Shown here: positions 2,854-40,518 of the stretch, in pieces
Layout: each line of letters starts with the position of its first letter
Position numbering within the stretch: the first letter of the stretch is position 1
Virus genome (UHGV): UHGV-1358930
From: a virus
DNA: 64,000 nucleotides
Strand: one strand, 5' to 3'
The notes under the pieces: model-generated
What the model was told of the DNA's origin: nothing
The model's input: the letters and a program-made list of their open reading frames with translations, nothing else
Database searches by the model: none
Position numbers and translations under genes: made by a program

Positions 2854-4722
2854 TTGGCTATCGCTAAAGTTCCAGATGATTTATTTAAAATATGTCAAAC
2901 TTGTGGTGAAAAATTCCACCCTAACACATACAGACAACGTAATTGTGGTAAAACAAGAACTAAAACATGTCCAATATGTGGCAAGGATTTTACATATACA
3001 TGTACTCCGGAAGGATCAAAGAAGAAAACATGTTCCAGAAAGTGTGCAGATCAATTCGCTGAACAAGTTAGAGAATCTAAGTCATCCGCAGTTAAAAAAG
3101 CTTGTGAGTACTGCGGCAAACTATTTACACCTAAAACAAAGTTTGATAGATACTGCTCAGGTCCTCACTACAAGAAGTGTGTAGTTTGCGGAAAAGAATT
3201 TGAGTTTGACATACTATACTACAAAGGAATAAAGACATGTTCTAAAGAATGCAGATATAAGCTTGCAACAGATAATAGAGATATTCCTACTATGGTGCAA
3301 AATCTAGAAAGCACAATGCTTATGAAATACGGCGTCAAGCATGCTATGGATATTCCTGGTGTAGTAGATAAAATAAAAGAAACAAACAGAGCTAGATATA
3401 GAAGTGATTGGTATACGCAGACCGATGAATACAAGCAATCTGTAGAACAGACTTCACTGGCTAACTACGGAGTTAAGCACTTTCTTTCTAGTGAAGAAGT
3501 AAAGTCAAAACGAAGAGATACGTGTAAAGAAAAATATGGAGTGGATAATGTATCAAAATCTCCTGAGATTCAAGAACGAATAAAAGAAACATATGCTAAG
3601 AAATTCGGTTTAGAGAACGTGAGCCAGACACGAATCGGCAATATATCTGAATGGGTACAATTCAAAGCAGACCCTAAAAAATATCTAGAGACTACATTTG
3701 ATAACGCTCCTACGATACAAGATCTTTGTTTGTATTTTGGCTGCTGTAGTGCGTCATTGTACAACGCGATCAAAGGTGTAGATGTCAGTAATCTAATTAA
3801 GCATACTAGTTCAAACGTAGAATCCGAAATAATTGATTGTTTGAAATTTATTTCGCCTGAATCTAACGTGATAAGAAATTGTAGATCGATCATATCTCCG
3901 TATGAAATTGATATTTATCTACCAGAATTGAAGTTAGGAATTGAATGTGATCCAACAGTAACTCATAATTCATCTGTTTCAGATCCCTGGGGTCAGCCTC
4001 CAAAAGATAGTAAGTATCATCAAATGAAAACAGATATGTGTGAATCACAAGGTGTCAGACTTATTCATCTATTTGGATACGAATGGAACCATAAACGTGC
4101 TATCATGGAATCTATTTTACGGAATGTATTGGGTAAAAATGATAGGCGAATTTATGCAAGAAAGTGTGAGTTGCGTGAAGTTTCTTATACAGACAGTAAA
4201 GTGTTTCTGATTGCTAATCATAGACAAGGCTTTGCAAATTCGTCTGTTAGACTTGGACTATACTATCAGAATGAATTAGTTTCACTTATGACATTTGGCA
4301 AGATTCGACGAACTATTGGAGCAAACAAAGATGTTGACGGTTGGGAACTTGTCAGATTCTGTAATGCGTTGAATACCTCAGTTGTAGGTGGAGCTTCTAA
4401 GTTATTCAAACATTTTGTAGATACATACCATCCTGAAGTTATACTATCATTCTCAGACAGAGCGCATACAACCGGTAACTTGTACCAAACTTTAGGATTT
4501 ACAGAGAAGAGCAGATCTGCTCCTGGATATGTTTGGGTAGATGAATTAACTGATATCGCATACAACCGTGTCAATGCACAAAAGCATAACTTAAAGAAAT
4601 TTTTGAACGATGATAACATCGATTTAACAAAAACTGAAGCTCAGATAATGGAGGAACACGGATTCGTGAGAGTATACGACAGCGGTGTAATAACATGGCA
4701 GTGGAACAAACCGATGAAGTAG
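2854..4722 (+). CDS. Multi-zinc-ribbon protein with four tandem FCS/TRASH-like fingers at the N-terminus, KYGV-type repeats in the middle and a C-terminal domain of unknown function.
   Basis: Repeated C-x2-C-G-K-x-F...(T/F)CS-x2-C units occur in residues 14-130. Repeated KYGVKH/KYGVDN units occur in residues ~150-250. The start codon is TTG, preceded by GGAG. Confidence 0.4.
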   Translation: MAIAKVPDDLFKICQTCGEKFHPNTYRQRNCGKTRTKTCPICGKDFTYTCTPEGSKKKTCSRKCADQFAEQVRESKSSAVKKACEYCGKLFTPKTKFDRYCSGPHYKKCVVCGKEFEFDILYYKGIKTCSKECRYKLATDNRDIPTMVQNLESTMLMKYGVKHAMDIPGVVDKIKETNRARYRSDWYTQTDEYKQSVEQTSLANYGVKHFLSSEEVKSKRRDTCKEKYGVDNVSKSPEIQERIKETYAKKFGLENVSQTRIGNISEWVQFKADPKKYLETTFDNAPTIQDLCLYFGCCSASLYNAIKGVDVSNLIKHTSSNVESEIIDCLKFISPESNVIRNCRSIISPYEIDIYLPELKLGIECDPTVTHNSSVSDPWGQPPKDSKYHQMKTDMCESQGVRLIHLFGYEWNHKRAIMESILRNVLGKNDRRIYARKCELREVSYTDSKVFLIANHRQGFANSSVRLGLYYQNELVSLMTFGKIRRTIGANKDVDGWELVRFCNALNTSVVGGASKLFKHFVDTYHPEVILSFSDRAHTTGNLYQTLGFTEKSRSAPGYVWVDELTDIAYNRVNAQKHNLKKFLNDDNIDLTKTEAQIMEEHGFVRVYDSGVITWQWNKPMK

Positions 4723-14957: not shown

Positions 14958-17672
14958 ATGAACAGAATACAGATAAATCAGAATGGAAACTACTACGAGA
15001 TAAAATTTAAATATGATCCAACTTTAGTTGCTATGATAAAGCAGATTCCTGGAAAGGAATGGAATCCGGGTGAAAAGCTTTGGAGAATTCATAAAGATAA
15101 GTTAGGAATGCTGCTGAATATGCTCAAGGGTTCTAAGTACGCAGATGCTTATGAATTACAGAGTAATGAGCAGATAGGTGAAAATGCAGAAATTGAACCT
15201 ACTACGACTATCCCGAATGTTGATTTAACTGGAATCAAGTTATTTGTCGAAGATGGCAGTAAGCTGTATCCACATCAGTTAGATTTTATGAAATATGCGA
15301 TTGATCGTCAGCGCAAAGGATACAGAAGCGGGTTTCTTTGCGCAGACGATCCCGGTTGCATCGACGGAGATGCAACAATTCGTATCAAAGAATCTGGAAA
15401 GCCGTGGACGCGTGAGACCAAATTGTCTAACGTGTACAAGTTGTTCTCAGATGGGCATGTATTCAAAGTCAAATGTATGGTTAATGACAGATTTCAATAT
15501 ATGCCAATCAAATATGTATTAGATAGAGGAAATAGATCTGTTGTTAAGGTTACGTTTGAATCCGGATACATTATCTGTACACCTGATCATGAAATATATA
15601 CAGAAAATGGATGGGTTCCTGCAGAAAGCTTGTCTACTGGAGATACAATATTTACAAATGGTGATCCTGAAAGATGTATAAACTGTGGAAGTACAGAAAA
15701 CATCATTCAGTCATCTGACGCAACCTACAAAGGATACTGCAGAAGATGCATGTATAAATTTAGAAAGTGCGGCGTGCTTGACGATGATGTAGTTGTAAAG
15801 ACCGTTGATGAAGATGGATATGTTAGATTGAAGGGTAGACCTACAAGACTATGGCCTTTGCATGACAAATCAAATGGAATGGGAATATATGAGCATCATC
15901 AGGTTTGGTATGAACACACTGGGCATATTATAGACACTAAAACTGAAGCGATTCATCACATCAATCATATCAAGACTGATAATCGATTTGAGAATTTGAA
16001 GTTATTGTCTATTTCCGAGCATGCTAAACTCCATGCTGACATGTCTACAAATCATTTGCCACAGTTTCAAGATCGAGACTTTTATTACTGCCATGGAGTA
16101 AAGACTTGGTGTGTTCCTCATTCTGAAGCCGTCTTATCTGTGGAGCCTTTTGGAACAAAACATGTATATGACATAGTAATAGATAGCGAAGATATCCATA
16201 ATTTTATTGCAAACAATGTAGTTGTACATAACTGCGGTAAGACTTTAGAGAGTATTAACTATGCAATGTACAATAAGCTATATAACAGATACAAACATTG
16301 TTTAGTCATCTGTAACGTCAATACTTCGAAGTATAACTGGCAAGATGATATCAGGAAGCATACCAATGGAAAAATGAGTGGATATATTTTAGGATCTAGA
16401 AAACGGAAACATCCGAAGCCTGGGCAAGCTATTTATATCGTAGGAAGTAGCCAAAACAAATTAGATGATCTATTGTGCGGACATATGTATGGAGATGATA
16501 CTGAACCCGAATTACCCTATTTTATCATCTTAAATGTAGAAGCTATCAGAATGAAAGTAGGAAAACGATACCCTATCGCAGATAAAATCATCGACATGAT
16601 AAATGATGGCGAACTTAATATGATTATCATTGATGAGGTACATAAAAATATGTCACCCACATCCTTACAAGGCAAGCAGATACTTAGGATAAAAGACAAA
16701 ACTCATAGTAGATGTACATGGATATCGTTAACAGGTACTCCTATCGTCAATAAACCTACAGATGTTTTCTTACCTATGCGATTGATAGATGCACACAATT
16801 TTACTAGTTACTACAAATGGTGTCAGTATTTCTGCGTATATGGAGGATACGGTGGGCATGAAGTAATTGCGTATCGAAATATTCCTAGGCTTAAATTTAT
16901 GTTACAGCAAAATATGATTCGTCGGAGAAAAGAAGATGTTTTGAATCTACCTGATAAGATTCATATGGATGTATACGTAGAAAACACTAAATACCAGTCC
17001 AGACTTGCTGAAGAAGTTACAATGGACTTGATTGCACACGCAGAAGAAATTGCAAATGATTTGAACCCTATGGTCAGATTCTTACGACTTCGTCAGGTTA
17101 ATGGATCTCCAGAATTAGTTGATCATGATCTTCGAGTAGATAACACTTATTTGAAATACAACGCAAAGTTAGTCAAGTTGTTAGAATTACTTGAGGAGAT
17201 TCACGAAAGAGGAGAGAAGACAGTTATCTTCTCCAACTGGGTCGAGCCACTTCGTACACTATTCAAATTCTTATCTTCAAAATATAAAGTATGCTGCTTT
17301 ACAGGTACAATGTCTGAATCAGAAAGACAAAAGCATAAGCGTGTGTTTATGAACAATCCTGAATACACTGTTATGATAGGCACTATTGGTGCACTTGGAA
17401 CTACTCATACATTAACTGCCGCAAACAATATCATATTTTATGACGAGCCCTGGACATACGCAGATAAATTACAAGCAGAAGATAGATGCCATCGAATTTC
17501 GGCAAAAAAGTCCGTTAATGTATATACACTTATTTCTAAAGATACAATTGACGAACGAGTACATGATATAGTGTATAGCAAGAAAGACACATCGGATTAT
17601 TTAGTTGACAACAAGCTTGACTTCAAAAACAATCCAAATCTAGTTGCTACACTACTAGGTAAAGACATCTGA
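14958..17672 (+). CDS. SNF2-family (SF2) helicase precursor containing an intein.
   Basis: The split motif I (LYPHQ...CADDPG|CGKT), the DEVH box (IIIDEVH) and C-terminal helicase motifs (AEDRCHRI) are all present. Residues 134-425 interrupt the P-loop. Confidence 0.65.
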   Translation: MNRIQINQNGNYYEIKFKYDPTLVAMIKQIPGKEWNPGEKLWRIHKDKLGMLLNMLKGSKYADAYELQSNEQIGENAEIEPTTTIPNVDLTGIKLFVEDGSKLYPHQLDFMKYAIDRQRKGYRSGFLCADDPGCIDGDATIRIKESGKPWTRETKLSNVYKLFSDGHVFKVKCMVNDRFQYMPIKYVLDRGNRSVVKVTFESGYIICTPDHEIYTENGWVPAESLSTGDTIFTNGDPERCINCGSTENIIQSSDATYKGYCRRCMYKFRKCGVLDDDVVVKTVDEDGYVRLKGRPTRLWPLHDKSNGMGIYEHHQVWYEHTGHIIDTKTEAIHHINHIKTDNRFENLKLLSISEHAKLHADMSTNHLPQFQDRDFYYCHGVKTWCVPHSEAVLSVEPFGTKHVYDIVIDSEDIHNFIANNVVVHNCGKTLESINYAMYNKLYNRYKHCLVICNVNTSKYNWQDDIRKHTNGKMSGYILGSRKRKHPKPGQAIYIVGSSQNKLDDLLCGHMYGDDTEPELPYFIILNVEAIRMKVGKRYPIADKIIDMINDGELNMIIIDEVHKNMSPTSLQGKQILRIKDKTHSRCTWISLTGTPIVNKPTDVFLPMRLIDAHNFTSYYKWCQYFCVYGGYGGHEVIAYRNIPRLKFMLQQNMIRRRKEDVLNLPDKIHMDVYVENTKYQSRLAEEVTMDLIAHAEEIANDLNPMVRFLRLRQVNGSPELVDHDLRVDNTYLKYNAKLVKLLELLEEIHERGEKTVIFSNWVEPLRTLFKFLSSKYKVCCFTGTMSESERQKHKRVFMNNPEYTVMIGTIGALGTTHTLTAANNIIFYDEPWTYADKLQAEDRCHRISAKKSVNVYTLISKDTIDERVHDIVYSKKDTSDYLVDNKLDFKNNPNLVATLLGKDI
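15357..16232 (+). other. Intein of 292 aa containing an HNH_3-type homing endonuclease and a zinc finger, inserted in the helicase Walker A loop.
   Basis: The insert starts at Cys (G|CIDGDATI) and contains block B (TPDHEIYT). Its HNH motif is HHINHIKTDNRFENLKLLSISEHAKLH. It ends VVVHN followed by the extein Cys (CGKT). Confidence 0.6.
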
Positions 17673-31104: not shown

Positions 31105-32899
31105 TATTTGGAATATGCACAGCATCAAAAATAAGCATGTTGAGCTGGCAGACAAAAACATCTTAGTCGGTAAAAACGGATCAGGAAAGTCTACTGTATT
31201 GAATGCTATTCAGCTAGCGCTGCTTGGCTACATTCCAGGTACAAACAAACAGAACAGGGATATATTCAACCATGCATGTGCAAGCCCGATGAAGGTTATG
31301 GTTACATTTGATAATGGATACTATATCTGCAGAACGTATACTAAGCAGAAGAACACAGTGAAATGTGATGTAGATACGTTTCCTACAGAGCTTGACATAA
31401 AAGCTATAGTATCCGGTCTTGAGCTTCCGATATTTAACTTCAACGAATTTGTGGCATTAAGTCCGAATATGCTGAAAGATAGATTGATGGAGCTGATCCC
31501 GAGACAAAACTTTGATTTAAGCATAAAAGATGCGATAGCTGACGAATTGGATAAGTTATCTGAAGAGACAAAACACTTGATGACAACAGAACTTGCATCA
31601 ATTGAAACTGACACTGATATCTTATCAGAAATCAAAAAATTACATAAATACACAAAAGACATTGTTTCATTTAAACAGTCTGAAGTCACACGTCTTACGA
31701 ATTCAATTGAATCATCTGTTCAGTATACAGATGTAGACAGCTCATACAACTTAAAGGATGTACAGGCAAAGATCGACTACTATAAGAAGCTCAGAGCAGA
31801 TTCAGCTGAAGTATATAGATGTAATGAAACTATTCAGGCCATTGAATCTCAGCTTGCTGATTTTTCGTTGACAGCGCCGAAAGAAGATAAGTTTCACGAT
31901 GACAGATACAATGAATGGTCGTTTGAACTCACTTGCTATTCGAACAAACGAGATGTGTTGAAAAACGATTTATCTCGTGAAACTGAAAAGATTGCGGAAC
32001 TGAAATATAAGAAGCGGAACTTAGAGCAGAGCCTGAATGCTTCAAATATCTGTCCTATTTTGCATGACGTATGTGATAGATTGACCATAGATAGAGGCGA
32101 GTTAGCAGCACAGCTAGATACCGTTGAGACGGAATTGCTTGCTGCGCAGTATAGATACGCAGATATTACAAGTACCATCAATGATTTAACTTCAAAGATT
32201 GACAAGTTGTCAAAAAATCTAGACGTCTTAGCTACTAACTACGATGTTAAGCAGCAGCTAATCGATCATAAAGCCGCTATCAAGTCTCAGGTGAGGGATA
32301 TGGTTGCTAGTACTGGTCTCAATGCCGAATTTATCGAATCTGAGTTAGATAAGCTTGATAACATTCGAATCAAATTGCTTGCTAACATGGAATACGATAG
32401 AATTATGTCTAAAGTTGTTAAAGATAAGTATCAAGCGGAACTGGATCTGGCAGTACTGAAACGCATTGCAGATAAGTTAGGTCCAAATCAGCTTCAAGCT
32501 GTCGTATCCGCCGCACCATTCGAGTCTGCAAAGCAGATCATTTCAGATAATCTCAAAGCGTGCGGATTGCTTGGAGATGCGTATTTTGTTACAGATGGAG
32601 GCAACAATTCATTTGACTTTGGACTTGTTAGAGATGATTTGCATATCTCTTATAAATCATTGTCATCGGGTGAAAAATGTCTGTACATGTTAGCATTTAT
32701 GACAGCATTACTATCTATGAATGAATGCAGTATCAACCTTTTGCTGTTAGATGATGTATTCGATCACTTAGATAACCAGCACACACAGTTAGCTTTAAGC
32801 TATATCAGCAATGATGCTAATGTGCAATACATTTTTGCCGGCGTAAACAATGTATTTGTTGAGCAGAAATTTGACAACATCGATGTTGTAAATATGTGA
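31085..32899 (+). CDS. SbcC/Rad50-like SMC-family ATPase.
   Basis: An N-terminal Walker A (GKNGSGKST) is separated by a long coiled coil from a C-terminal signature/Walker B (LSSGEKCLYML...LLLLDDVFDHLD). No adjacent Mre11/SbcD is seen. Confidence 0.55.
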   Translation: MKLKSVDIWNMHSIKNKHVELADKNILVGKNGSGKSTVLNAIQLALLGYIPGTNKQNRDIFNHACASPMKVMVTFDNGYYICRTYTKQKNTVKCDVDTFPTELDIKAIVSGLELPIFNFNEFVALSPNMLKDRLMELIPRQNFDLSIKDAIADELDKLSEETKHLMTTELASIETDTDILSEIKKLHKYTKDIVSFKQSEVTRLTNSIESSVQYTDVDSSYNLKDVQAKIDYYKKLRADSAEVYRCNETIQAIESQLADFSLTAPKEDKFHDDRYNEWSFELTCYSNKRDVLKNDLSRETEKIAELKYKKRNLEQSLNASNICPILHDVCDRLTIDRGELAAQLDTVETELLAAQYRYADITSTINDLTSKIDKLSKNLDVLATNYDVKQQLIDHKAAIKSQVRDMVASTGLNAEFIESELDKLDNIRIKLLANMEYDRIMSKVVKDKYQAELDLAVLKRIADKLGPNQLQAVVSAAPFESAKQIISDNLKACGLLGDAYFVTDGGNNSFDFGLVRDDLHISYKSLSSGEKCLYMLAFMTALLSMNECSINLLLLDDVFDHLDNQHTQLALSYISNDANVQYIFAGVNNVFVEQKFDNIDVVNM

Positions 32900-32916
32900 A
32901 TTTAGGAGCAGCTAAA

Positions 32917-33408
32917 ATGACACTAGAAATCGGAAGTATCTACCATGTTAAGGTTATCAAATTGCTTGATAAAGCTATCATAGTTAGATTACCTGACAAC
33001 TCAACAGAATTGATTCATGTATCTAAAATTGCTAATGCATTTGTCAAAGCACCAGAAGAATATGTGTCGATAGATGATGAATTCGACGCTGTTGGAGTTA
33101 AAGGTCAGACCAAGCCTGTTGAATTATCTTTGAGACACTTAGATCTGAAGAAATTTAATGCTACGATAACTGAACCGAAGATTATCGACCCTCCTAGTAA
33201 ACAGAAGCCGAAACAGCATAGTAAGCTATCTCAGAATGCTAGTAATTCAACGAAACCAATACATTCTAAGATCGACAGGAAACTGTCCTTGGATGAGATG
33301 ATCAAGAAAAGCAACAAGCAATTTGAAGATAAGTTTAGAGGTAGGAAAGACTTCACAAAGAAGAACAAGACTCGTAGAAAAAACCAGAGGCCTTACGAAG
33401 AAGATTAA
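32917..33408 (+). CDS. S1-like RNA-binding domain protein with a basic C-terminal tail.
   Basis: The stretch IGSIYHVKVIKLLDKAIIVRLPDNSTELIHVSKI looks like an S1/OB fold. The C-terminus is K/R-rich. Confidence 0.4.
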   Translation: MTLEIGSIYHVKVIKLLDKAIIVRLPDNSTELIHVSKIANAFVKAPEEYVSIDDEFDAVGVKGQTKPVELSLRHLDLKKFNATITEPKIIDPPSKQKPKQHSKLSQNASNSTKPIHSKIDRKLSLDEMIKKSNKQFEDKFRGRKDFTKKNKTRRKNQRPYEED

Positions 33409-33591
33409 CTCTGTATGTCTTCTTGATGCTAAAGTGAATGAACTCGAAATCAAACAAATAGATATTGGCCGAGGATTTTTATCTTCAGCCAATATAAATA
33501 TTCTCAGAAATAGTTATCAAAAAATTAAAATTGCAACGATCGTTAAATAAGTATGTAGCAGAAGAAGGTCAGAGCTTTCGGAAGGAGCTGA

Positions 33592-33801
33592 ATGGTGATG
33601 AAGTCTCAGTCCACTAACTATTACGATCAGATTGATAAGGCAATCAAATCTTACGAACAATCTAGACCGTATCACCCTTTGGGTCCTGATAAAATCTGTG
33701 ATAAAATTGATTGGTGCTGGAAATGGAGAAAAATTTCTGAATGTCAGATGCACAGCCTAGTTGACCGAATAGTGTATCTGATGGACAATAACTTAGTTTG
33801 A
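33592..33801 (+). CDS. Hypothetical small protein.
   Basis: An AAGGAG ribosome-binding site precedes the last AT-rich ORF before the GC-rich RNA island. Confidence 0.3.
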   Translation: MVMKSQSTNYYDQIDKAIKSYEQSRPYHPLGPDKICDKIDWCWKWRKISECQMHSLVDRIVYLMDNNLV

Positions 33802-33868
33802 ATTTAGTTTGATGTTACGGCGTCGCTAAGCGCTAAAACATAGTAGAAACCTTTATTCTATATGATGT

Positions 33869-33942
33869 TGGAGATTGGAGTAATGACAGCACATAGGTCT
33901 TTGACACCTACGGAGTAAGTTCAAATCTTGCATCTCCAGCCA
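33869..33942 (+). tRNA. tRNA-like element with a Gln-type anticodon loop (UUG) and a degenerate D-arm.
   Basis: It has a 7 bp acceptor (tggagat/atctcca) ending in g-CCA, a good T-arm (gtaag-TTCAAAT-cttgc) and an anticodon stem-loop taggt-CTTTGAC-accta. The D-stem is weak. Confidence 0.35.
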
Positions 33943-34446
33943 ACTGTCAATACTTAATTGACTGATGTCAGAGTAATCAGCTAACCTGACAAAGAATGAA
34001 AATGGTCGCCCTCCACCCGGAGGGCGTGGATGGAAATTACGAGATAAGTCCTCGTTATTTACCTTAGGATAGTGGCTAGTTGATAACGCGTAGCGTGACA
34101 ATCTAAGCGGTAAGCTGATGAACTAAATTATTTACAATCGTTAATTAAGTATGTAGCAGCTAGTAAGCTATTACATAGGAGCTCACAATCCTGCCGAAAT
34201 ATCATCTAGAATATTTCCGCGCAAATTGGCTGAAAAGAGTGAGTGGCAAGGAATATGCCAGGAATGATTCCAAAGTTGATAAGCAACTATAACCGGGTGC
34301 AAAACCAATCCCGGTATGATTAGAATCATACTTCTTAATAAGAATTCCGTATATCCTTGATTGAAGTATACGAAATTCGTTGATCCTAAAACGATAGGCG
34401 TTAACACATGTTTTATAGGTGACACCTCGGAAAGACGAGGATATAC

Positions 34447-34522
34447 GCTGGTGTAGCTCAGTTGGTAGAGCAGCTGATTTGTAATCAGCAGGTCAGGGGT
34501 TCGAGTCCGTTCACCAGCTCCA
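34447..34522 (+). tRNA. tRNA-Thr (anticodon UGU).
   Basis: Hand-folded cloverleaf with a 7 bp acceptor, a D-arm gctc/gagc and the anticodon loop tTTGTAa. One T-stem mismatch is present and the gene encodes its CCA. Confidence 0.55.
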
Positions 34523-35275
34523 TATCGGCCGGTTTCGGGTCGTTAGATAAACACAGTGATGTGTATAAAGCATGGTCGATGATTTCTGAACCATGCGACT
34601 GAAGAAGTTCTTCAGTGCAACGGAAAACCAATATTCACTAATCCAAACCTACGGTTGAGGGCAACTGCTAATGCTATGGCTTGGAAGGAGTCATGAAAAA
34701 GGCTCTATATTAACTCGGAAACGAGTGGATGGGAAATTGCTTCGAGGTGCGAATCCTGTTAAGTTCAGTGCTTCGTTGATTTTGAAAGCTCCCTTAAATC
34801 GAAAGATAGGAGCGCTTTCAGTAAAGCCTGTCGATAACAAGACGGCAGAACGGCGACGATTGGGTCGTGCTCAAAAGGTACGAATGGTCAAACGTACACC
34901 TCGTCGTTCATTGGGATCAATACACACTTTAGCTTTCATTAGCACCAGTGGGGTAAACTGTTATATCAAGCAAAAGTGTGTGCGACTTTAGAGAGACAAA
35001 CGACTTATCGTTCTGAAAAATGAACGCGCGTAAAGCTCGCAAGGCAATACGTGAGACAGTACGAGTAGGTGCAACCGTAGGAGACCGCAATCTCCGCACT
35101 CCGCAAGAGGCGATGTGCTAAAAGGAAATCTATAGTGCTTCAGAGTAAGATTTTGCTGGCTTTTACAAAACCAGTGTCGTTGATGCCTACAGCTTAATCG
35201 GCTGTGTGGTCACTCGCTTCCAACGGCGAGAGATGGCATCGTGGCGGGTCAAGATCTCAGCCCGTCGTTCAATAT

Positions 35276-35348
35276 AGTCCAATAGCTTATCACGGTAAAG
35301 CGCGTTTGTAAAACGACGAGTGGCTCGGTTCGAACCCGGCTTGGACAT
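35276..35348 (+). tRNA. tRNA-like pseudogene in which the anticodon arm is replaced by a 5 bp stem with a 3 nt loop.
   Basis: A 6/7 bp acceptor, a D-stem gctt/aagc and a T-arm tcgg-TTCGAAC-ccgg are present. The stretch cgttt-GTA-aaacg forms a tight hairpin in place of an anticodon loop. Confidence 0.3.
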
Positions 35349-35629
35349 CCTATTAGACCCTTGCACGCCTCTCAACGATGCGTACCATGCGAGGGTCGAA
35401 ATTAAATAGTTTTCTTGCCGCATTTGGTACGAAGTATCAAAATATCCGCTGCCTGCGGTAATAGGTGATCTGAATATAGATCAAATTCAGATCAACGGCG
35501 TAGCATTTAACGGGCTTTAGCTACACTACACGGTAAGAGTTGAGAAAGCTGGTTGATGTATCGTGCAAACCTGCGGGTCCACGATCCACAGACGGTTCGC
35601 GATGACTGCTGTAAACGGAATCGCGTTTT

Positions 35630-35721
35630 GGGAATGTACTCAAGTGGTTGAAGAGACCAGTCCTGAAAACTGGGAGGTCGTTCATAGCGGCGCGAGCGTT
35701 CGAATCGCTCCATTCCCGCCA
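35630..35721 (+). tRNA. tRNA-Ser (anticodon UGA), class II with a long variable arm.
   Basis: The acceptor gggaatg/cattccc ends in g-CCA. The D-arm has a 3 bp stem. The anticodon arm is ccagt-CCTGAAA-actgg, the variable arm is 20 nt and the T-arm is gagcg-TTCGAAT-cgctc. Confidence 0.6.
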
Positions 35722-36276
35722 TCCCCGCTCGACGCAACGCGCCTGAGAATGAAACCGATGCAACTTTGGGAGCACGTCACACGGGCGGAAAAGCCGTGCG
35801 TTGCTAAACCTGCTCCAACGTAATGGAGGAAGTCGGAACGGCTAATCCGTCAAGAGCCGAAGAACTGGATCCTAAGCTCATATTCGATAACAACAGAAGC
35901 GTGTAGGTGGCAGCTCGGAAAGACGAGCAAATATAGGTCAGTACAGTGTAATTGGTATCACCCCGGACTGTAAATCCAGCTTGGCCTACTATAGAGATAG
36001 CGCTAAGACCAGCTATCACGGCGTTGAATCAGTGATCAGGTACAAGAAACGCTTAATCTCGAAGCGAAACAGAGTAGCTAAAAGAACTGTACGTTGCATA
36101 GTAGGCAACCAACCGAAATTGGCCGAACTGGCGTGTCGTGTAGCCATGCGACTTTAAATAACAACGGTGGCACCATTACATACAGATGCGCTGCGAGCAA
36201 AGTATGAGAAAGATTATCTTTCTTTTGTCGGTGGGCAGGTTTGAAGTTATCCTGTTGCAGATAAAACTTCAAACAC

Positions 36277-36350
36277 GCCGGTATAGTGTAGTGGTAACAC
36301 CCAATCCTTCCAAGATTGTATTGCGGATTCGAGTTCCGTTACCGGCTCCA
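36277..36350 (+). tRNA. tRNA-Gly (anticodon UCC), copy 1.
   Basis: The cloverleaf has anticodon loop cTTCCaa, discriminator U and an encoded CCA. Confidence 0.55.
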
Positions 36351-36460
36351 GCGCGAGAACGTCACTGACTAAGCGTAGCACAGTGCATGGATAGGAGGGA
36401 AGCTTCATGAGAAACGACGCGCACGCCTTCTAAGTCTTGAAAGGGGGGGGGACTTAGAAA

Positions 36461-36760
36461 ATGAGCAGAAGCTATAAGAAAACGCCGTGGTGCGGAGATA
36501 AGAAAGGCAAATGGAAAAAGCGCAGAGCTTCAAAGGTCGTGCGCGGATATCTCAGGCGCCATATCGAAGATCTGTTCCAAGATGCGCAATACAAGAAAAT
36601 CTACTGTTCACGGTACATATGCGACTACGGGTTCTTATATCCATGGGAAGAGCATTGGACGTATGTGCAGGAAGAGAATTCACATGTGCGTGCGAATGAG
36701 CCAAAACGTTCGAAAGAAGATGAGTACCGCCAGTGGTATCAAGAGTACAAAGCTAAATAA
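36461..36760 (+). CDS. Hypothetical basic protein inside the GC-rich island.
   Basis: A 99 aa K/R-rich ORF. A poly-G9 tract in a hairpin loop sits directly upstream of the start. Confidence 0.3.
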   Translation: MSRSYKKTPWCGDKKGKWKKRRASKVVRGYLRRHIEDLFQDAQYKKIYCSRYICDYGFLYPWEEHWTYVQEENSHVRANEPKRSKEDEYRQWYQEYKAK

Positions 36761-36799
36761 CAATCGGTTATGCGCTCTCCGATAAAAGAGCGCACACGA

Positions 36800-36874
36800 T
36801 GGGCTATGGTGAAAAGGCAACACATCAGACTTTGACTCTGACATTTGTTGGTTCGAGTCCAACTAGCCCAGCCA
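36800..36874 (+). tRNA. tRNA-Gln (anticodon UUG).
   Basis: U1-A72 and G73 match the usual Gln identity features. The anticodon arm is tcaga-CTTTGAC-tctga, the T-arm is gttgg-TTCGAGT-ccaac and the CCA is encoded. Confidence 0.55.
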
Positions 36875-36949
36875 AGTAAAAAGAAGACGTTTTATCTCTC
36901 TTTATCTTTCTGTTTGTGGCATCAGTACAAACAAAATGCCACACAACAT

Positions 36950-37026
36950 GGGAATGTAGCTCAGTAGGTTAGAGCGCATGACTATAGGTCATGAGGTCGA
37001 AGGTTCAAGCCCTTCTGTTCCCTCCA
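36950..37026 (+). tRNA. tRNA with an atypical anticodon arm: loop CTATAGG, apparent anticodon AUA, or alternatively a 6 bp stem with a 5 nt loop.
   Basis: The acceptor, D-arm (gctc/gagc), T-arm (gaagg-TTCAAGC-ccttc) and CCA are all good. The anticodon loop is non-canonical. Confidence 0.4.
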
Positions 37027-37435
37027 AAGCCTATGTCAGTATAGGTCTTGAAATGATAAATAGACCAATACATTATCTTTCTAAAGATAATGTATCTGAT
37101 GAAAAGAGATCATCAACTCTCGGCGAAATATAACTGTTGTGACGAATGTGTCGCTTGACACAAAGAAGTAGCAGGTTCGTCGCTGCGCTTAATCTACTGA
37201 ACTGCAATGTTGATGTAAGCAGTGATAGAGGTTCCCAAACCCATTCAGGGAGATTAAGAAAAAGTTTGCTTATTTAGTAGAAAGAGGGTTGGAGGGGCAC
37301 AGCAAGTAGAATAAATGCAATAGGGCAACAAATTTGAAAGCTAATAAAGGATGTGCTAAGGAGCAGAAGTAACTACCTCTGTCTACTGTGTATTTCTACT
37401 AAATGAGTTTAACTTTTTATTAAGGAGCTTATAGT

Positions 37436-37648
37436 ATGAAAACATATACTTTTATTTGTTATGATAAGTATCCAAAAACAGTTAAAAAGTTCCACACTTT
37501 TAGAAAGCGATTTTCTTCGTTATCAGATATTGCTAAATTCTTAAAATCTTCAAATAAGCTCTATTTGCATGAGCCACTGAAACAGCTATCTAAAAACGAA
37601 TTAGCAATTCTGTCAAAGAAGCTCCGATCGTTAAATAACATCACATGA
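37436..37648 (+). CDS. Hypothetical small basic protein.
   Basis: An AAGGAG ribosome-binding site precedes a 70 aa ORF. Confidence 0.3.
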   Translation: MKTYTFICYDKYPKTVKKFHTFRKRFSSLSDIAKFLKSSNKLYLHEPLKQLSKNELAILSKKLRSLNNIT

Positions 37649-37771
37649 AAAATCAAAATATTTATAAATAAGCTAGAAGGTTTTAATTAAATTTTATTTT
37701 TGACAATTATACTAAAATACTAAATTATCCGTATAATTGAACCTAATATAAATGTAGATAGGAGGTGATAC

Positions 37772-39028
37772 ATGATGAAAACATGGAAGCAAAATCTAAA
37801 ACATCTTACCGTCGATCAATACAATCTGTTAAGAGAATTATGTAGCTTGTCTAGAGCAGTATATAATGAAAGTTTGTATAATATTCGGCAGCATTATTTT
37901 GAAGAAGGTTCTTACTTGAGATATGAAGCAAACTACTATCTTGTAAAGAATTCTGATAATTACAAAAGATTAGGTGCAAATGTTGCTCAGCAATCTATGA
38001 AAGGAGCTGACGCATCCTTCAAATCCTTCTTCGGGTTACAGAAGCTCGCTAAATCCGGCAAGTATCAGGGCTGGAAAATACGAATGCCCAAATATTTGAA
38101 GAAAGATTCGTTTTTCAAAATAGTATTTAGTCAAGCGCAGATATCAGATGACAAATTTCGTGTTCCGGTTTCTTTTGATATGCGAAAAGATTACAAAGAA
38201 CCAATGTTCATAAAAATTCCTCCGCATATTATCGGCAAGAAAATAAGGCAGATTCATATTGTTCCTAAGTACAACGGTAGATACTTTGAAGTTAGATACA
38301 TGTTTGACGATATTGATGTAGAAAAGCCTGAAATCGATGCTACAAGAGCAATGGGAATAGACTTAGGTGTCAATAACTTAGCTACTTGTGTAACCGATAC
38401 AGGTGAGTCTTTCATAATTGATGGTAAGAAATTAAAATCAATAAATCAATGGTACAACAAAGAGTTGGCCAGACTGTCAAGTATTAAAGATAAGCAAAGT
38501 ATCAAAGGTTACACAAAACGCCAATACAACCTGACAACTAAGAGAAACAACAGAGTTAACAACTATATTTATTGTGCAGCTAAGAAAATAGTTAACTACT
38601 GTGTCAATAACAAAATTGGTAATATTGTTGTAGGGTATAATGATGGTTTTCAATCGAGATCCAACTTAGGAAAAGTAAATAACCAAAACTTCGTTATGAT
38701 TCCGTTAGGACGACTGAAGAGCAGACTTGAGTATCTTTGCAATCAACATGGAATCAATTTTGTACTTCAAGAAGAAAGTTACACTTCAAAAGCATCGTTC
38801 TTTGACGATGATAAAATGCCAAAATGGAATCCGCAGAATCCAGAAGAAGCAAAATTTTCGGGAAAACGCGTATACAGAGGATTATACATCACATCAAACA
38901 AAACCAAAATAAACGCAGATGTCAACGCAGCACTAAACATACTAAGAAAAAGTAACTTGACAGACCTAACCGTCTTACAAGCTAGAGGCGCAGTCAGCTC
39001 GCCTTCAAGATGCTATATAGCATCTTGA
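37772..39028 (+). CDS. tnpB: IS605/IS200-family OrfB (TnpB) RNA-guided nuclease homolog with no adjacent TnpA.
   Basis: RuvC-like motifs GIDLGVNNLAT, QEESYTSKASF and INADVNAALNIL are present. The 418 aa size is typical, and a zinc-ribbon region sits near the C-terminus. Confidence 0.65.
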   Translation: MMKTWKQNLKHLTVDQYNLLRELCSLSRAVYNESLYNIRQHYFEEGSYLRYEANYYLVKNSDNYKRLGANVAQQSMKGADASFKSFFGLQKLAKSGKYQGWKIRMPKYLKKDSFFKIVFSQAQISDDKFRVPVSFDMRKDYKEPMFIKIPPHIIGKKIRQIHIVPKYNGRYFEVRYMFDDIDVEKPEIDATRAMGIDLGVNNLATCVTDTGESFIIDGKKLKSINQWYNKELARLSSIKDKQSIKGYTKRQYNLTTKRNNRVNNYIYCAAKKIVNYCVNNKIGNIVVGYNDGFQSRSNLGKVNNQNFVMIPLGRLKSRLEYLCNQHGINFVLQEESYTSKASFFDDDKMPKWNPQNPEEAKFSGKRVYRGLYITSNKTKINADVNAALNILRKSNLTDLTVLQARGAVSSPSRCYIAS

Positions 39029-39153
39029 TAAAGATTTTTTTAATGAATTTAATTGATTTATTTAAAATCTGCTGATGTAGCGCAGCTGTTAGAGCAACCG
39101 ACTTTAAGCAATGAGTCGTAGGTTGAAGTCTAGCAACCAGCTAGATTTGATAT

Positions 39154-39227
39154 GCGGATATAGTGTAACGGTAACATCCGACTCTTCCAAAGTCGTGTTG
39201 CGGGTTCGAGTCCCGTTATCCGCTCCA
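39154..39227 (+). tRNA. tRNA-Gly (anticodon UCC), copy 2.
   Basis: The cloverleaf has the same anticodon loop cTTCCaa, discriminator U and CCA, but a different acceptor from copy 1. Confidence 0.55.
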
Positions 39228-39363
39228 AGAGGGAGTATGCACCCCGCTACCCATCTAGTATGTCGACTATCTGATGGCGCGAAATTTAACTGAAAAGAGC
39301 ATATATGCAAGCTTGTCGCATATGAGTACAAGTGTCGTAAAGTCAATACGATGTCTAACTATT

Positions 39364-39391
39364 TTGACAAAGGCAGAGAAGCTGCTATAAT
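39364..39391 (+). promoter_or_regulatory. Sigma-A-like promoter upstream of tRNA-Met.
   Basis: TTGACA and TATAAT are separated by 16 nt, and a conserved hairpin follows. Confidence 0.5.
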
Positions 39392-39421
39392 CGGGTGCAA
39401 AAACCATTCCCGATACAATAA

Positions 39422-39498
39422 GGGTCTTTAGCTCAGTTGGTCAGAGCATCCGGCTCATAACCGGACGGTCCAGGGTTCAAACCCCTGAAGACCCACCA
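39422..39498 (+). tRNA. tRNA-Met or Ile2 (anticodon CAU), elongator type.
   Basis: G1-C72 is paired and the discriminator is A. The anticodon arm is tccgg-CTCATAA-ccgga and the CCA is encoded. Confidence 0.6.
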
Positions 39499-39712
39499 CA
39501 ATTGGTACAACACGACTGTAACGACTCTCGCGGTTTAAAGTTGTATCCCACTTCTTGATTGAGGTGTGAAGTGTCAAGAGAGCTTCCGACGAGTCTTATG
39601 GGCACCACCTAGCGGTGAAAAGATAAGACAATCGTCATTAGATCTAAGTTGTCCGGCAGTGTTAATGTTATTGAATCATGGTGAAATTGTGATCACATCT
39701 GCCGGATACATA

Positions 39713-39783
39713 TCCTCCCGTAGTGTAGTGGTAGCACTAGCGTCCGTCAGGGCGAAGGATCCGTTCGAATCGGAAGGGAGGTT
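39713..39783 (+). tRNA. tRNA-like pseudogene in which the anticodon arm is replaced by a 5 bp stem with a 4 nt loop.
   Basis: The D-arm (gtgt-agtggta-gcac) is nearly identical to the Gly tRNAs and the T-arm is tccg-TTCGAAT-cgga. The segment cgtcc-gtca-gggcg forms a tetraloop hairpin with no anticodon loop, and no CCA follows. Confidence 0.35.
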
Positions 39784-39997
39784 GTCTGGCACGGACAAAG
39801 TGCAGAACCTATCAAGAGGAATTCAGTGCCTGCCTCGCTTCGGATAGCAAAAGAAGGCGTTTGGTAGTAATCGACAAACTACTCGCGGTTACAGAGAGGG
39901 AGAGGCGTTACAGGTAAACCTCTTAGGTGCTATGATATCAGGCACTTAGCAAAGCACAGCTTGCAGTTAGGACTAATCCGACCAGATATCAAAATAT

Positions 39998-40071
39998 GCA
40001 GCTATAGTGTAATGGTAACACTCAACTCTTCCAAAGTTGTATTGCCGGTTCAAATCCGGTTAGCTGCTCCA
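39998..40071 (+). tRNA. tRNA-Gly (anticodon UCC), copy 3.
   Basis: The cloverleaf has anticodon loop cTTCCaa, discriminator U and CCA. Confidence 0.55.
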
Positions 40072-40090
40072 CAGAAAGTCTACAGAAAGG

Positions 40091-40417
40091 GTGATAAATA
40101 TGGCTATTTATAAATGCCCGGTTTGTGAAGGAAGGGGATTTGTTCCTTTCGGATTCTATACAAGTCAACCACATGATGGAAGCTCAATAACTGGTTCTGC
40201 TTCAACTGAAATTTGTAGAAGCTGTGATGGTAGAGGCGTAATATTTGATGAATGCCTTAGAACAGCTTCAAACAATGAGCAAAAGATCTGTAGCAACTGC
40301 GAAATGAATGATGGAATGGTATATATGTCTTATCCTCCTAAGTACAGATGCACTGTATCCGGTTGTTTCAATGAAGGAACACATCTATGCGATCTAGATG
40401 ACGTGATGGATAAGTGA
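40091..40417 (+). CDS. Cys-rich protein with four CxxC pairs, probably a zinc ribbon.
   Basis: Zinc-ligand pairs CPVCEGRG, CRSCDGRG, CSNCE and CTVSGC are present. A GGGTGA ribosome-binding site precedes the start. Confidence 0.4.
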   Translation: MINMAIYKCPVCEGRGFVPFGFYTSQPHDGSSITGSASTEICRSCDGRGVIFDECLRTASNNEQKICSNCEMNDGMVYMSYPPKYRCTVSGCFNEGTHLCDLDDVMDK

Positions 40418-40478: not shown

Positions 40479-40518
40479 CCGTCTGGGTGCGTCAACACCT
40501 GGACGGTTCTTTTTTTTG
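40479..40518. terminator. Rho-independent terminator.
   Basis: A GC-rich imperfect stem ccgtctggg...cctggacgg is followed by a T9 run. Confidence 0.65.

Follow-up and report, generated by a model that had tools for sequence, protein, structure and literature searches.

Why should a phage carry, within a cluster of its tRNA genes, tRNA-shaped elements whose anticodon arms have collapsed? The question is raised by positions 33,802–40,090 of the 64,000-nt virus genome UHGV-1358930 (below, "the window" means all 64,000 nt). The genome belongs to a large tailed phage, with genes for a T4-type capsid protein, ThyX, RecU, an NAD ligase and its own sigma factor in the window, and the segment is its tRNA and non-coding RNA island. 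All parts of the island lie on the + strand: nine tRNA genes, a GOLLD RNA, an orphan abiF-motif hairpin, a TnpB element, two small protein genes, two tRNA-shaped elements with collapsed anticodon arms and two frank tRNA remnants. An earlier description made from the letters alone (the sequence-only reading) had presented the island as tRNAs plus mimics. The cluster was indeed there, but GOLLD (740 nt of the GC-rich spacer), the abiF hairpin, the TnpB insertion (1.4 kb) and the two remnants had been missed. Our comparisons suggest, with a probability of about 0.6, that the island is a polycistronic tRNA/non-coding RNA array in which tRNA-shaped elements, some of them non-decoding, mark the processing sites that free GOLLD and the hairpin.

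For comparison, 216 loci (1.96 Mb in total) were fetched, which are referred to by L-numbers (L001 and so on). The near-identical contigs L001 (the same as L036) and L038 are called the siblings.

A full-length, divergent GOLLD RNA

34447–34522, + strand: tRNA-Thr(UGU), the 5′ boundary of the GOLLD cassette (ARAGORN; Rfam 67.3 bits)
34523–35263, + strand: GOLLD RNA (RF02032), about 740 nt, with a variable 5′ domain (34523–34847) and a conserved 3′ domain (34848–35263)
35276–35348, + strand: element of tRNA shape whose anticodon arm is defective, at the 3′ boundary of GOLLD (Rfam tRNA 27.7 bits; ARAGORN ps80)
35359–35395, + strand: orphan abiF-motif RNA hairpin (RF03085)
39712–39784, + strand: tRNA-shaped element with a 5-bp/4-nt-loop hairpin as anticodon arm and no encoded CCA (Rfam 24.2 bits; ARAGORN ps80)

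When the whole window was searched with Rfam at the gathering thresholds, only tRNAs and the abiF motif were found; GOLLD surfaced in the E-value mode, in which 34848–35263 matched RF02032 over model positions 1–416 of 416 (92.1 bits, E 1.2e-23). The same mode, with E up to 10, gave no group I intron, omega-RNA or further family besides those named here, and no match to ROOL RNA (RF03087) in 33500–40400. The score is under the curated gathering score of RF02032 (150 bits), which speaks against the assignment. None of ten related GOLLD loci tested reached 150 bits either, so the cut-off excludes a whole subgroup, and the limit lies in the cut-off and not in the RNA.

To enlarge the comparison, a pattern made from two GOLLD motifs was used, which yielded 29 GOLLD loci from IMG/VR, and a protein search with ORF99 (an open reading frame (ORF) of the island, described below) added three closer ones, L204–L206. 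The sequence 34526–35263 aligned end to end with at least 14 other GOLLD loci at 66–80% identity, the alignment spanning about 710–740 nt with L028, L010, L021, L007, L026 and L204. Thus, the RNA is about 740 nt long and begins right after tRNA-Thr. When the Rfam structure was projected on an alignment of 17 sequences, 89.3% of the cells were paired, and 45 of the 86 pairs of the 3′ domain had changed on both sides (214 cells). Controls with the partner slid by 1–3 columns gave 3–10 such pairs, and none of 500 shuffles matched the observed number. The motifs UCAAAAG, AAGCAAAAGU, GCUCGCAAGG, CGCAA and AUCUCAGCC are present. Positions 34523–35263 are a full-length, divergent GOLLD RNA.

GOLLD RNAs are found in phage tRNA islands and can carry tRNAs or a pseudo-tRNA (PMC12286853; PMC6582537). 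The window copy resembles the family in its length of about 740 nt, in a conserved 3′ domain with the family motifs and helices next to a variable 5′ domain, and in its phage setting, where a tRNA immediately precedes it and a tRNA-shaped gene follows (PMC12286853; PMC6582537). It differs in that several helices are shortened, the linker holds no tRNA, the 3′ flanking tRNA is degenerate, and the block is present in just one of three near-identical phages. The GOLLD from env-38 self-assembles into a 14-mer cage (PMC12286853); by homology only, the window GOLLD would assemble into such a 14-mer RNA cage as well.

Two side observations were made on the family. A sizeable phage GOLLD group (L007–L035 and L204–L206; IMG/VR, many from sample 3300045988) lies below 150 bits and is missed by standard annotation. 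In L008 (offsets 829–899 before AAGCAAAAGU) and L020 (680–783), there is a tRNA-like call inside GOLLD, just before the motif, which is the position of the published 'linker' tRNAs, whereas the linker of the window is without any.

tRNAs and tRNA-shaped elements at the GOLLD boundaries

The tRNA-Thr ends 1–4 nt ahead of GOLLD, and element 35276 begins 13 nt after it. Both positions proved to be recurrent slots: among the 29 IMG/VR GOLLD loci, a tRNA ended about 445–470 nt before AAGCAAAAGU in approximately 18 and started about 290–345 nt after it in approximately 20. In the window, the 5′ slot is occupied by tRNA-Thr and the 3′ slot by element 35276. In the closest relatives, L204–L206, it is a tRNA-Thr(UGU) that begins 13 nt after GOLLD, a spacing identical to that of element 35276, and the element can be aligned along its length to this tRNA, the UUGUAAA of the anticodon loop included. 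On the grounds of the same slot and this alignment, element 35276 is best read as a degenerate tRNA-Thr(UGU) paralogue, in which a mutated stem appears to bury the old anticodon in a 5-bp/3-nt hairpin.

The 5′ flank of GOLLD in L204–L206 also has a tRNA shape, with constant acceptor, D and T arms and a variable anticodon loop (CUUUAA, AAGAAAA). Several boundary elements in other loci have no U33 or have 6-nt loops.

A caution for odd loops in metagenome contigs came from tRNA-Lys(UUU), which has the 6-nt loop CUUUAA in L204 (5276–5349) and L206 (6129–6202) and the normal CUUUUAA in L205 (6128–6202). Either one base has really been deleted, or the assembly is wrong in the homopolymer.

tRNA shapes with collapsed anticodon arms

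The sequence-only reading had drawn tight hairpins in place of the anticodon arms at 35276 and 39713, and the hairpins were found as described. In element 35276–35348, a 13-nt hairpin, cgttt-GTA-aaacg at 35303–35315, stands where 17 nt are normal, unless a 6-nt loop is drawn instead; in element 39712, the hairpin is cgtcc-gtca-gggcg at 39741–39754. Against the Rfam tRNA cut-off of 29 bits, the former scored 27.7 bits (E 8e-4 in a 377-nt scan) and the latter 24.2 bits over 39714–39782, with the anticodon arm skipped as a local end. ARAGORN called neither of them by default and, at the 80% threshold, gave both an unknown identity and a 6-nt loop. Thus, the ARAGORN and Rfam checks proposed for the odd elements left them below the tRNA thresholds, but a tRNA-like score appeared once the threshold was lowered.

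The misfit to the tRNA model is limited to the anticodon arm in both elements, which have retained G18G19 in the D loop and UUCGAAY in the T loop; neither encodes CCA, and their first pairs are mismatched. Element 35276 has neither a 7-nt loop with U33 on a 5-bp stem nor a proper CCA end. For element 39712, the minimum-energy fold is a cloverleaf (z-score −3.2), and none of 200 shuffles was as stable.

An orphan abiF-motif hairpin

The abiF hairpin begins 10 nt after element 35276. It passes the gathering score of RF03085 (38.3 bits against 37), its 15-nt core/loop GCCUCUCAACGAUGC is identical to the consensus, all six outer stem positions pair, and the fold z-score is −4.3. The junction between the two, CCU-AUUAGA-CCC, corresponds to CCA-AUUAGA-CCC in the tRNA-Met+abiF loci L102 and L161. 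No Abi_2 gene or domain was found among the 62 window ORFs scanned, and no ORF of at least 150 amino acids (aa) lies within 500 nt downstream of the hairpin.

We examined whether these features are shared by other phages. The abiF core was present in at least 120 IMG/VR contigs, and the outer stem paired at five or more of its six positions in 112 of 121 cases, with abundant covariation, showing that the matches are true abiF motifs. In 20 of 120 phage contigs the motif lay within 20 nt of a default-threshold tRNA; random positions within the same loci gave an expectation of 1.6 and at most 6 over 200 trials. There are two geometries: either the tRNA starts about 10 nt after the hairpin, or it ends 15–16 nt before the core. 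The latter is common to the window, L102, L107, L110, L119 and L161. The first sizeable downstream ORF encoded Abi_2 in none of the 42 phage abiF loci tested; phage abiF motifs are generally orphan. We found no description of the abiF–tRNA coupling in the literature searched.

In bacteria, the abiF-motif RNA is an antitoxin that binds and neutralises the AbiF HEPN toxin (PMC12373285; PMC12737573), and AbiF binding has been seen for RCd22 and AbiFr (PMC12373285, PMC12737573). According to the literature, the role of the phage copies is unconfirmed (PMC9964418; PMC12197685). The window hairpin is like the RF03085 antitoxins (RCd22 of C. difficile and the AbiFr of Prevotellaceae AbiF) in being a 37-nt hairpin with an identical 15-nt core. 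It differs in having no abiF downstream and in lying inside a tRNA array after a tRNA-shaped element, and it is a single copy, whereas RCd22 has two. By homology only, it would bind a host AbiF toxin.

The statistical link between orphan abiF hairpins and tRNAs suggests that processing of the tRNA array delivers a decoy antitoxin. In this proposal, which we make tentatively and consider somewhat doubtful, phage tRNA arrays would be platforms on which anti-defence RNAs are expressed and processed: the tRNA-processing enzymes would free the abiF hairpin at the adjacent tRNA or tRNA-like element, the decoy would keep host AbiF off during infection, and the sole reason for keeping degenerate tRNAs would be their use as processing handles for the hairpin and GOLLD. 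There is a conceptual likeness to pseudo-ToxI of phage PhiTE, with which the phage reportedly mimics the RNA antitoxin (type III) of a host abortive-infection toxin. There, too, the phage carries the antitoxin RNA and not the toxin, and an AbiF counterpart is what we propose here. The PhiTE case differs in that the toxin is ToxN and not AbiF, the RNA fold is another one, and there is no delivery by tRNA-array processing.

Exchange of cassettes between sibling phages

The island is a string of cassettes and a mosaic, the sibling phages having other cassettes in the same frame. The SbcC-like protein of the siblings is 97–98% identical, and the island blocks that they have in common with the window are 87–96% identical at the DNA level. 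Both siblings are without the 1.9-kb block 34455–36340, which comprises the tRNA-Thr body, GOLLD, element 35276, the abiF hairpin, tRNA-Ser, spacer C and the tRNA-Gly body; one of the three tRNA-Gly(UCC) copies thus travels with the GOLLD block. The sibling contigs that lack GOLLD include OBYM01000008.1 and OIWT01000046.1. The edges of the missing block fall inside tRNA genes, on the left 8 nt into tRNA-Thr and on the right 10 nt before the 3′ end of tRNA-Gly copy 1. In its place, the siblings carry a single 86-nt tRNA-Thr(UGU) (L001 14258–14343, L038 14089–14174), and they have small protein genes at the sites of other window spacers. The order GOLLD, tRNAs, tRNA-Gly, ORF99 in L206 matches that in the window, and for this reason the GOLLD arrangement may be older than that of the siblings. 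Element 39712 is kept in the window, L001 and L038 although neighbouring sequence is replaced. An exact 21-mer from its T arm occurred only in a sibling contig.

The 86-nt tRNA-Thr(UGU) of the siblings has a long variable arm (class II shape), and its acceptor stem is that of the ordinary tRNA-Thr of the window.

Processing sites or decaying genes

35904–35990, + strand: copy of the tRNA-Thr leader (35904–35933) followed by a tRNA remnant (35934–35990) (repeat D7)
39075–39142, + strand: degenerate tRNA remnant directly 3′ of the TnpB insertion (ARAGORN ps80 only, poor cloverleaf; repeat D4)

According to the mechanism that we favour, the island would be transcribed as long precursors, and RNase P together with the tRNA 3′-end machinery would cut at the tRNA shapes, freeing the tRNAs and the intervening RNAs. 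Element 35276, a former tRNA-Thr(UGU), would have lost decoding and kept its acceptor, D and T arms; it may have become redundant because of the intact tRNA-Thr(UGU) upstream of GOLLD. The retained shape would mark where GOLLD ends and where the abiF hairpin begins, and the degenerate elements would survive because the acceptor/T-arm shape, and not the anticodon, is used. Two of the functions that had been suggested for the odd elements gained support: a role as processing elements from the fact that true tRNAs hold the homologous positions at the boundaries of GOLLD and abiF, and an origin in tRNA gene turnover from the remnants at 35934 and 39075 and the cassette swaps of the siblings. Nothing was found in support of primers.

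Where a tRNA shape adjoins an RNA of another kind, RNase P or RNase Z can use it to set the ends of that RNA; mascRNA has a reduced anticodon arm, and the tRNA cluster of phage T4 includes the stable RNAs C and D. The island is like these cases of punctuation (mitochondrial transcripts, MALAT1-mascRNA, the tRNA-miRNA genes of murine gammaherpesvirus 68 (MHV68), and RNAs C and D of T4) in that a tRNA shape stands next to a non-tRNA RNA. It differs in that punctuation has been shown experimentally there, whereas what is shown here is position and shape, and in that bacteria mature the 3′ ends of CCA-encoding tRNAs by another pathway than the RNase Z route.

Besides the low GOLLD score, several points weigh against the favoured mechanism. 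We infer processing at these elements from their position, as equivalents of true tRNAs. The genuine tRNAs encode CCA, so RNase Z would not normally cut their 3′ ends and is not an obvious nuclease for the 5′ end of GOLLD. Element 35276 has an A1·A72 mismatch and a 49:65 mismatch, ends in CCU instead of CCA, and has a minimum-energy fold that is not a cloverleaf (z-score −0.2). Element 39712 is 91.8% identical to its counterpart in L001, compared with 91.5% for the flanks and 97–100% for true tRNAs; as it is no better conserved than the flanks, selection on it is not demonstrated. The island spacers gave z-scores of −1.2 to −3.9, a range overlapping with that of coding controls (−0.35 to −2.9), and no structure was shown in spacers B2, C, D1 and H2. 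Finally, as the two remnants show, tRNAs of the island do decay without keeping a function. The one at 35934–35990 has an 18-nt internal deletion relative to a homologous intact tRNA-like gene (L205 3912–3986), and the minimum-energy fold of the one at 39075–39142 is not a cloverleaf.

The possibility has to be considered that the tRNA-like elements themselves are nothing but decaying pseudogenes of a fast-turnover island, whose position by GOLLD and abiF is left over from true tRNAs. Besides the two unambiguous remnants, the divergence of element 39712 at the rate of the flanking spacer and the defects of element 35276 agree with this explanation, as do the free exchange of cassettes between siblings and the one-base loop deletion in the tRNA-Lys of L204 and L206 that is not found in L205. 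It does not agree with the finding that the damage in both elements is limited to the anticodon arm, with the acceptor, the D-loop GG and the T loop intact, nor with the recurrence of this pattern in unrelated GOLLD and abiF loci. Moreover, the GOLLD-flanking element of L204–L206 varies across the three phages in nothing but its anticodon loop, and element 39712 is kept in three island variants with replaced neighbouring sequence. We consider it unlikely that the elements are functionless, and retain the mechanism in which they mark processing sites.

The tRNA genes

33869–33942, + strand: tRNA-Gln(UUG) copy 1, with a weak D arm (ARAGORN; Rfam tRNA 47.7 bits)
35630–35721, + strand: tRNA-Ser(UGA), class II, with C33 for U33 (ARAGORN)
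36277–36350, + strand: tRNA-Gly(UCC) copy 1 (ARAGORN; Rfam 61.5 bits)
36800–36874, + strand: tRNA-Gln(UUG) copy 2 (ARAGORN; Rfam 63.7 bits), 100% conserved in the siblings
36950–37026, + strand: tRNA with anticodon AUA (ARAGORN; Rfam 62.7 bits)
39154–39227, + strand: tRNA-Gly(UCC) copy 2 (ARAGORN; Rfam 63.5 bits), 100% conserved
39422–39498, + strand: tRNA-Met(CAU), elongator type (ARAGORN; Rfam 73.4 bits)
39998–40071, + strand: tRNA-Gly(UCC) copy 3 (ARAGORN; Rfam 67.8 bits)

With tRNA-Thr, these make up the nine + strand genes that ARAGORN found by default between 33869 and 40071, and all nine coincide in position with the Thr, Ser, Gln, CAU and three Gly-UCC cloverleaves and the elements at 33869 and 36950 that had been folded by hand. 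Rfam RF00005 recovered eight of them (47.7–73.4 bits). The class II tRNA-Ser remained under the cut-off, its best match within the clan being tRNA-Sec (32.8 bits). U33, which this gene lacks, is nearly universal in tRNAs. The tRNA-Ser and the AUA tRNA have the acceptor 5′ strand GGGAAUG in common. Copy 1 of tRNA-Gln(UUG) is merely 90–96% conserved in the siblings, and the anticodon stem of tRNA-Met is swapped in L001 with full compensation. The three tRNA-Gly(UCC) genes, which had been thought unusual and to have unrelated acceptor stems, turned out to be ordinary paralogues, 77–82% identical, with compensated differences at acceptor pairs 3–5. By homology only, the U34 tRNAs would help in the reading of A-ending codons.

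The tRNA at 36950 encodes CCA and has counterparts in L001 (14937–15013) and L038 (14767–14843). Its A34 anticodon is AUA in the window and L038 and ACA in L001; this change of position 35 is the only one in L001, the discriminator base differs in L038, and the rest of the 77-nt gene is invariant. As C32–G38 and U33–G37 can pair, the anticodon stem may extend to 6–7 bp, leaving a 3-nt loop at 7 bp. A blastn search gave no clear answer on the amino-acid identity of this tRNA, since Asp, Asn, Ile and Lys tRNAs all matched at about 80%.

It could be argued that such odd tRNAs (the AUA/ACA anticodon, the C33 of tRNA-Ser) and the collapsed elements act against anticodon nucleases or HEPN RNases, either as decoys that soak up the nuclease or as resistant substitutes, whose uncleavable loops would let them stand in for cleaved host tRNAs. 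Loop changes can enable phage tRNAs to escape anticodon nucleases, and the altered parts here are exactly the anticodon loops; at 36950, near-identical phages have either AUA or ACA as the anticodon of an otherwise invariant tRNA body. In addition, the island has an abiF-type hairpin, which is related to a HEPN RNase toxin (PMC12737573). What makes this role improbable is that a collapsed 13-nt hairpin offers an anticodon nuclease no loop to bind, that elements without CCA cannot replace tRNAs in translation, and that no defence target was identified.

It is also conceivable that the odd elements are working tRNAs with non-standard loops (6-nt, 8-nt, A34) and unusual decoding, for example frameshift or stop suppressors. 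ARAGORN can draw 6-nt loops in both collapsed elements, the tRNA at 36950 has a good score and an encoded CCA, and deamination of A34 would let AUA read UAA and ACA read UGA. We consider this very improbable: 24 long ORFs contain no in-frame stop when translated with the standard code, and each of the three stop codons serves to end genes, while elements 35276 and 39712 have no encoded CCA, have mismatched first pairs and bury their anticodon nucleotides in stable stems.

Stop-codon recoding as the reason for the A34 tRNA was considered separately and rejected, since the ORFs are read in the normal way and genes end at each of the three stop codons.

The TnpB element, small protein genes and spacers

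34118–34325, + strand: leader module A, a paralogue of spacer G (repeats D5, D11)
35396–35629, + strand: spacer B2, whose last approximately 55 nt resemble a tRNA-Arg leader in L204
36461–36760, + strand: ORF99, a small basic (Lys/Arg-rich) protein, open in L001 and L038, where its length is unchanged
37027–37435, + strand: spacer E, 409 nt, upstream of ORF70
37436–37648, + strand: ORF70, a small protein, staying open at the same length in L001 and L038
37642–39074, + strand: TnpB-only IS200/IS605-type element, with tnpB at 37772–39028 (418 aa) (Pfam, NCBIfam)
39228–39421, + strand: spacer G, 80% conserved in L039 and L206
39499–39997, + strand: spacers H1 (39499–39711) and H2 (39785–39997), which flank element 39712, GC-rich and replaced in the siblings

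The GC content had been put at about 50% across 33.8–40.1 kb. It is 0.43–0.50 at 34–37 kb and 0.45 at 39–40 kb, with about 0.37 in the rest of the window, but only 0.32–0.36 at 37–39 kb. Nor are there "only short overlapping ORFs", as had been stated: a 418-aa TnpB is encoded at 37772–39028, and ORF99 and ORF70 are open in relatives.

TnpB matches PF01385 (OrfB_IS605) and PF07282 (Cas12f1-like TNB), both above the cut-off, and NF040570 (guided_TnpB) with 191.3 bits against a cut-off of 100. The element is missing from both siblings, where the empty site reads AACAT|GTAGCGCAGC (also AACAT|GTAGCGCAGCTGTTAG), the boundary being ambiguous by 2 nt; it is a recent insertion. No Rfam family matched an omega-RNA for it. 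Since its right end abuts the tRNA remnant at 39075, the guide-adjacent target would be tRNA D-arm sequence. It is like other TnpB-only IS200/IS605 elements in its curated-cut-off TnpB domains, its precise presence or absence and the lack of TnpA, and differs from them in lying inside a phage tRNA island and abutting a tRNA remnant.

ORF99 has an AGGAGG ribosome-binding site in the siblings and homologues of 56–61% identity in the tRNA islands of L204–L206 (with GOLLD) and L207–L210 (no GOLLD match). It may act as an RNA-binding partner. ORF70 takes its last codons from the inserted TnpB element, and its stop codon differs at the insertion point. Neither protein matched a known family or solved structure (for ORF99, no Pfam, PHROG, NCBIfam or PDB match).

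Leader module A contains a CGCGCAAAT..CTGAAAAGAG core, a TATAAC box and the hairpin CCGGG-UGCAAAACCAAU-CCCGG, the stem of which changes from CCGGG/CCCGG to CCAGG/CCTGG in L038, with compensation (alignment A3). The paralogous core CGCGMAAWTT..CTGAAAAGAG is located at 34218–34239. In spacer G, a perfect sigma-70 promoter (39364–39391, scan 12/12) stands ahead of tRNA-Met, and the hairpin CGGG-UGCAAAAACCAUU-CCCG abuts this gene. As RNAalifold on modules A and G mixed destroyed the consensus, the G module alone was scored by hand. The result was a three-hairpin RNA of about 100 nt (approximately 39232–39327) with 18 pairs, four of them with compensated changes, in five phages; copies lie at L001 15785–15880, L039 6203–6300 and L206 4664–4760, and the SbcC of one of the phages is just 63% identical. 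The RNA matched no Rfam family.

It was further observed that at 39386–39417 and 34294–34322 the TATAAT/TATAAC box runs into a 5–6 bp hairpin whose loop, UGCAAAA(A)CCAWU, is conserved and whose stem covaries (CCGGG/CCCGG, CCAGG/CCTGG, UCGGG/CCCGA). This hairpin is kept in the siblings despite a deleted −35 region and occurs in this phage group only (2 IMG/VR contigs).

Spacer E has the lowest fold z-score of the island (−3.9). A long-range helix of about 25 bp (37260–37285/37395–37420) closes off about 110 nt and lies shortly before the ribosome-binding site of ORF70, and RNAalifold on three close sequences gave one compensated pair. When spacers A1, B2, C, E, H1 and H2 were compared with the 216 loci, only short pieces were matched, namely 35568–35623 (to L204 3835–3887, 80% by blastn) and 35933–36033 (to L205). 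The terminator scan gave a sole convincing intrinsic site, at 40479–40506; the others were a false match inside tRNA-Thr and a weak 5-bp site at 34039.

Just upstream of the island, at 32896–33408, lies a gene for an S1-domain RNA-binding protein (GSP13/CvfD-like, below curated cut-offs). Mobile elements are plentiful in the phage beyond the TnpB element, with several HNH/NUMOD4 homing-endonuclease genes and an intein-containing helicase-like ORF elsewhere (2854–4722, 14958–17672 and others). A blastn search of the island against 50,697 GenBank phages gave tRNA pieces as the sole matches, indicating that there is no close cultured relative. A Firmicute host is hinted at by RecU, a Listeria-Bacteroides repeat protein and the sigma-70-type promoters; a GOLLD-pattern scan of the genome collection returned four unrelated metagenome-assembled genomes and no clue to the host.

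Implications

It is already known that GOLLD lies in phage tRNA islands, that a few phages have abiF RNAs, and that TnpB elements are common. Less expected are a GOLLD subgroup that is invisible at the Rfam cut-off, the presence or absence of the GOLLD block, and the coupling of orphan abiF hairpins to tRNAs. GOLLD is among the largest bacterial RNAs of unknown function, and the curated cut-off of Rfam misses a whole phage-borne subgroup of it. Its presence or absence between phages with 87–96% identical blocks is close to a natural knockout, in which the effect on infection would be directly testable. The non-decoding tRNA shapes sit exactly where GOLLD and the antitoxin-like hairpin need ends to be made. 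If both tRNA punctuation and the decoy are true, phage tRNA clusters would, beyond codon supply, also be delivery systems for structured RNAs, among them possibly an RNA that inhibits AbiF, the protein from which Cas13 descends.

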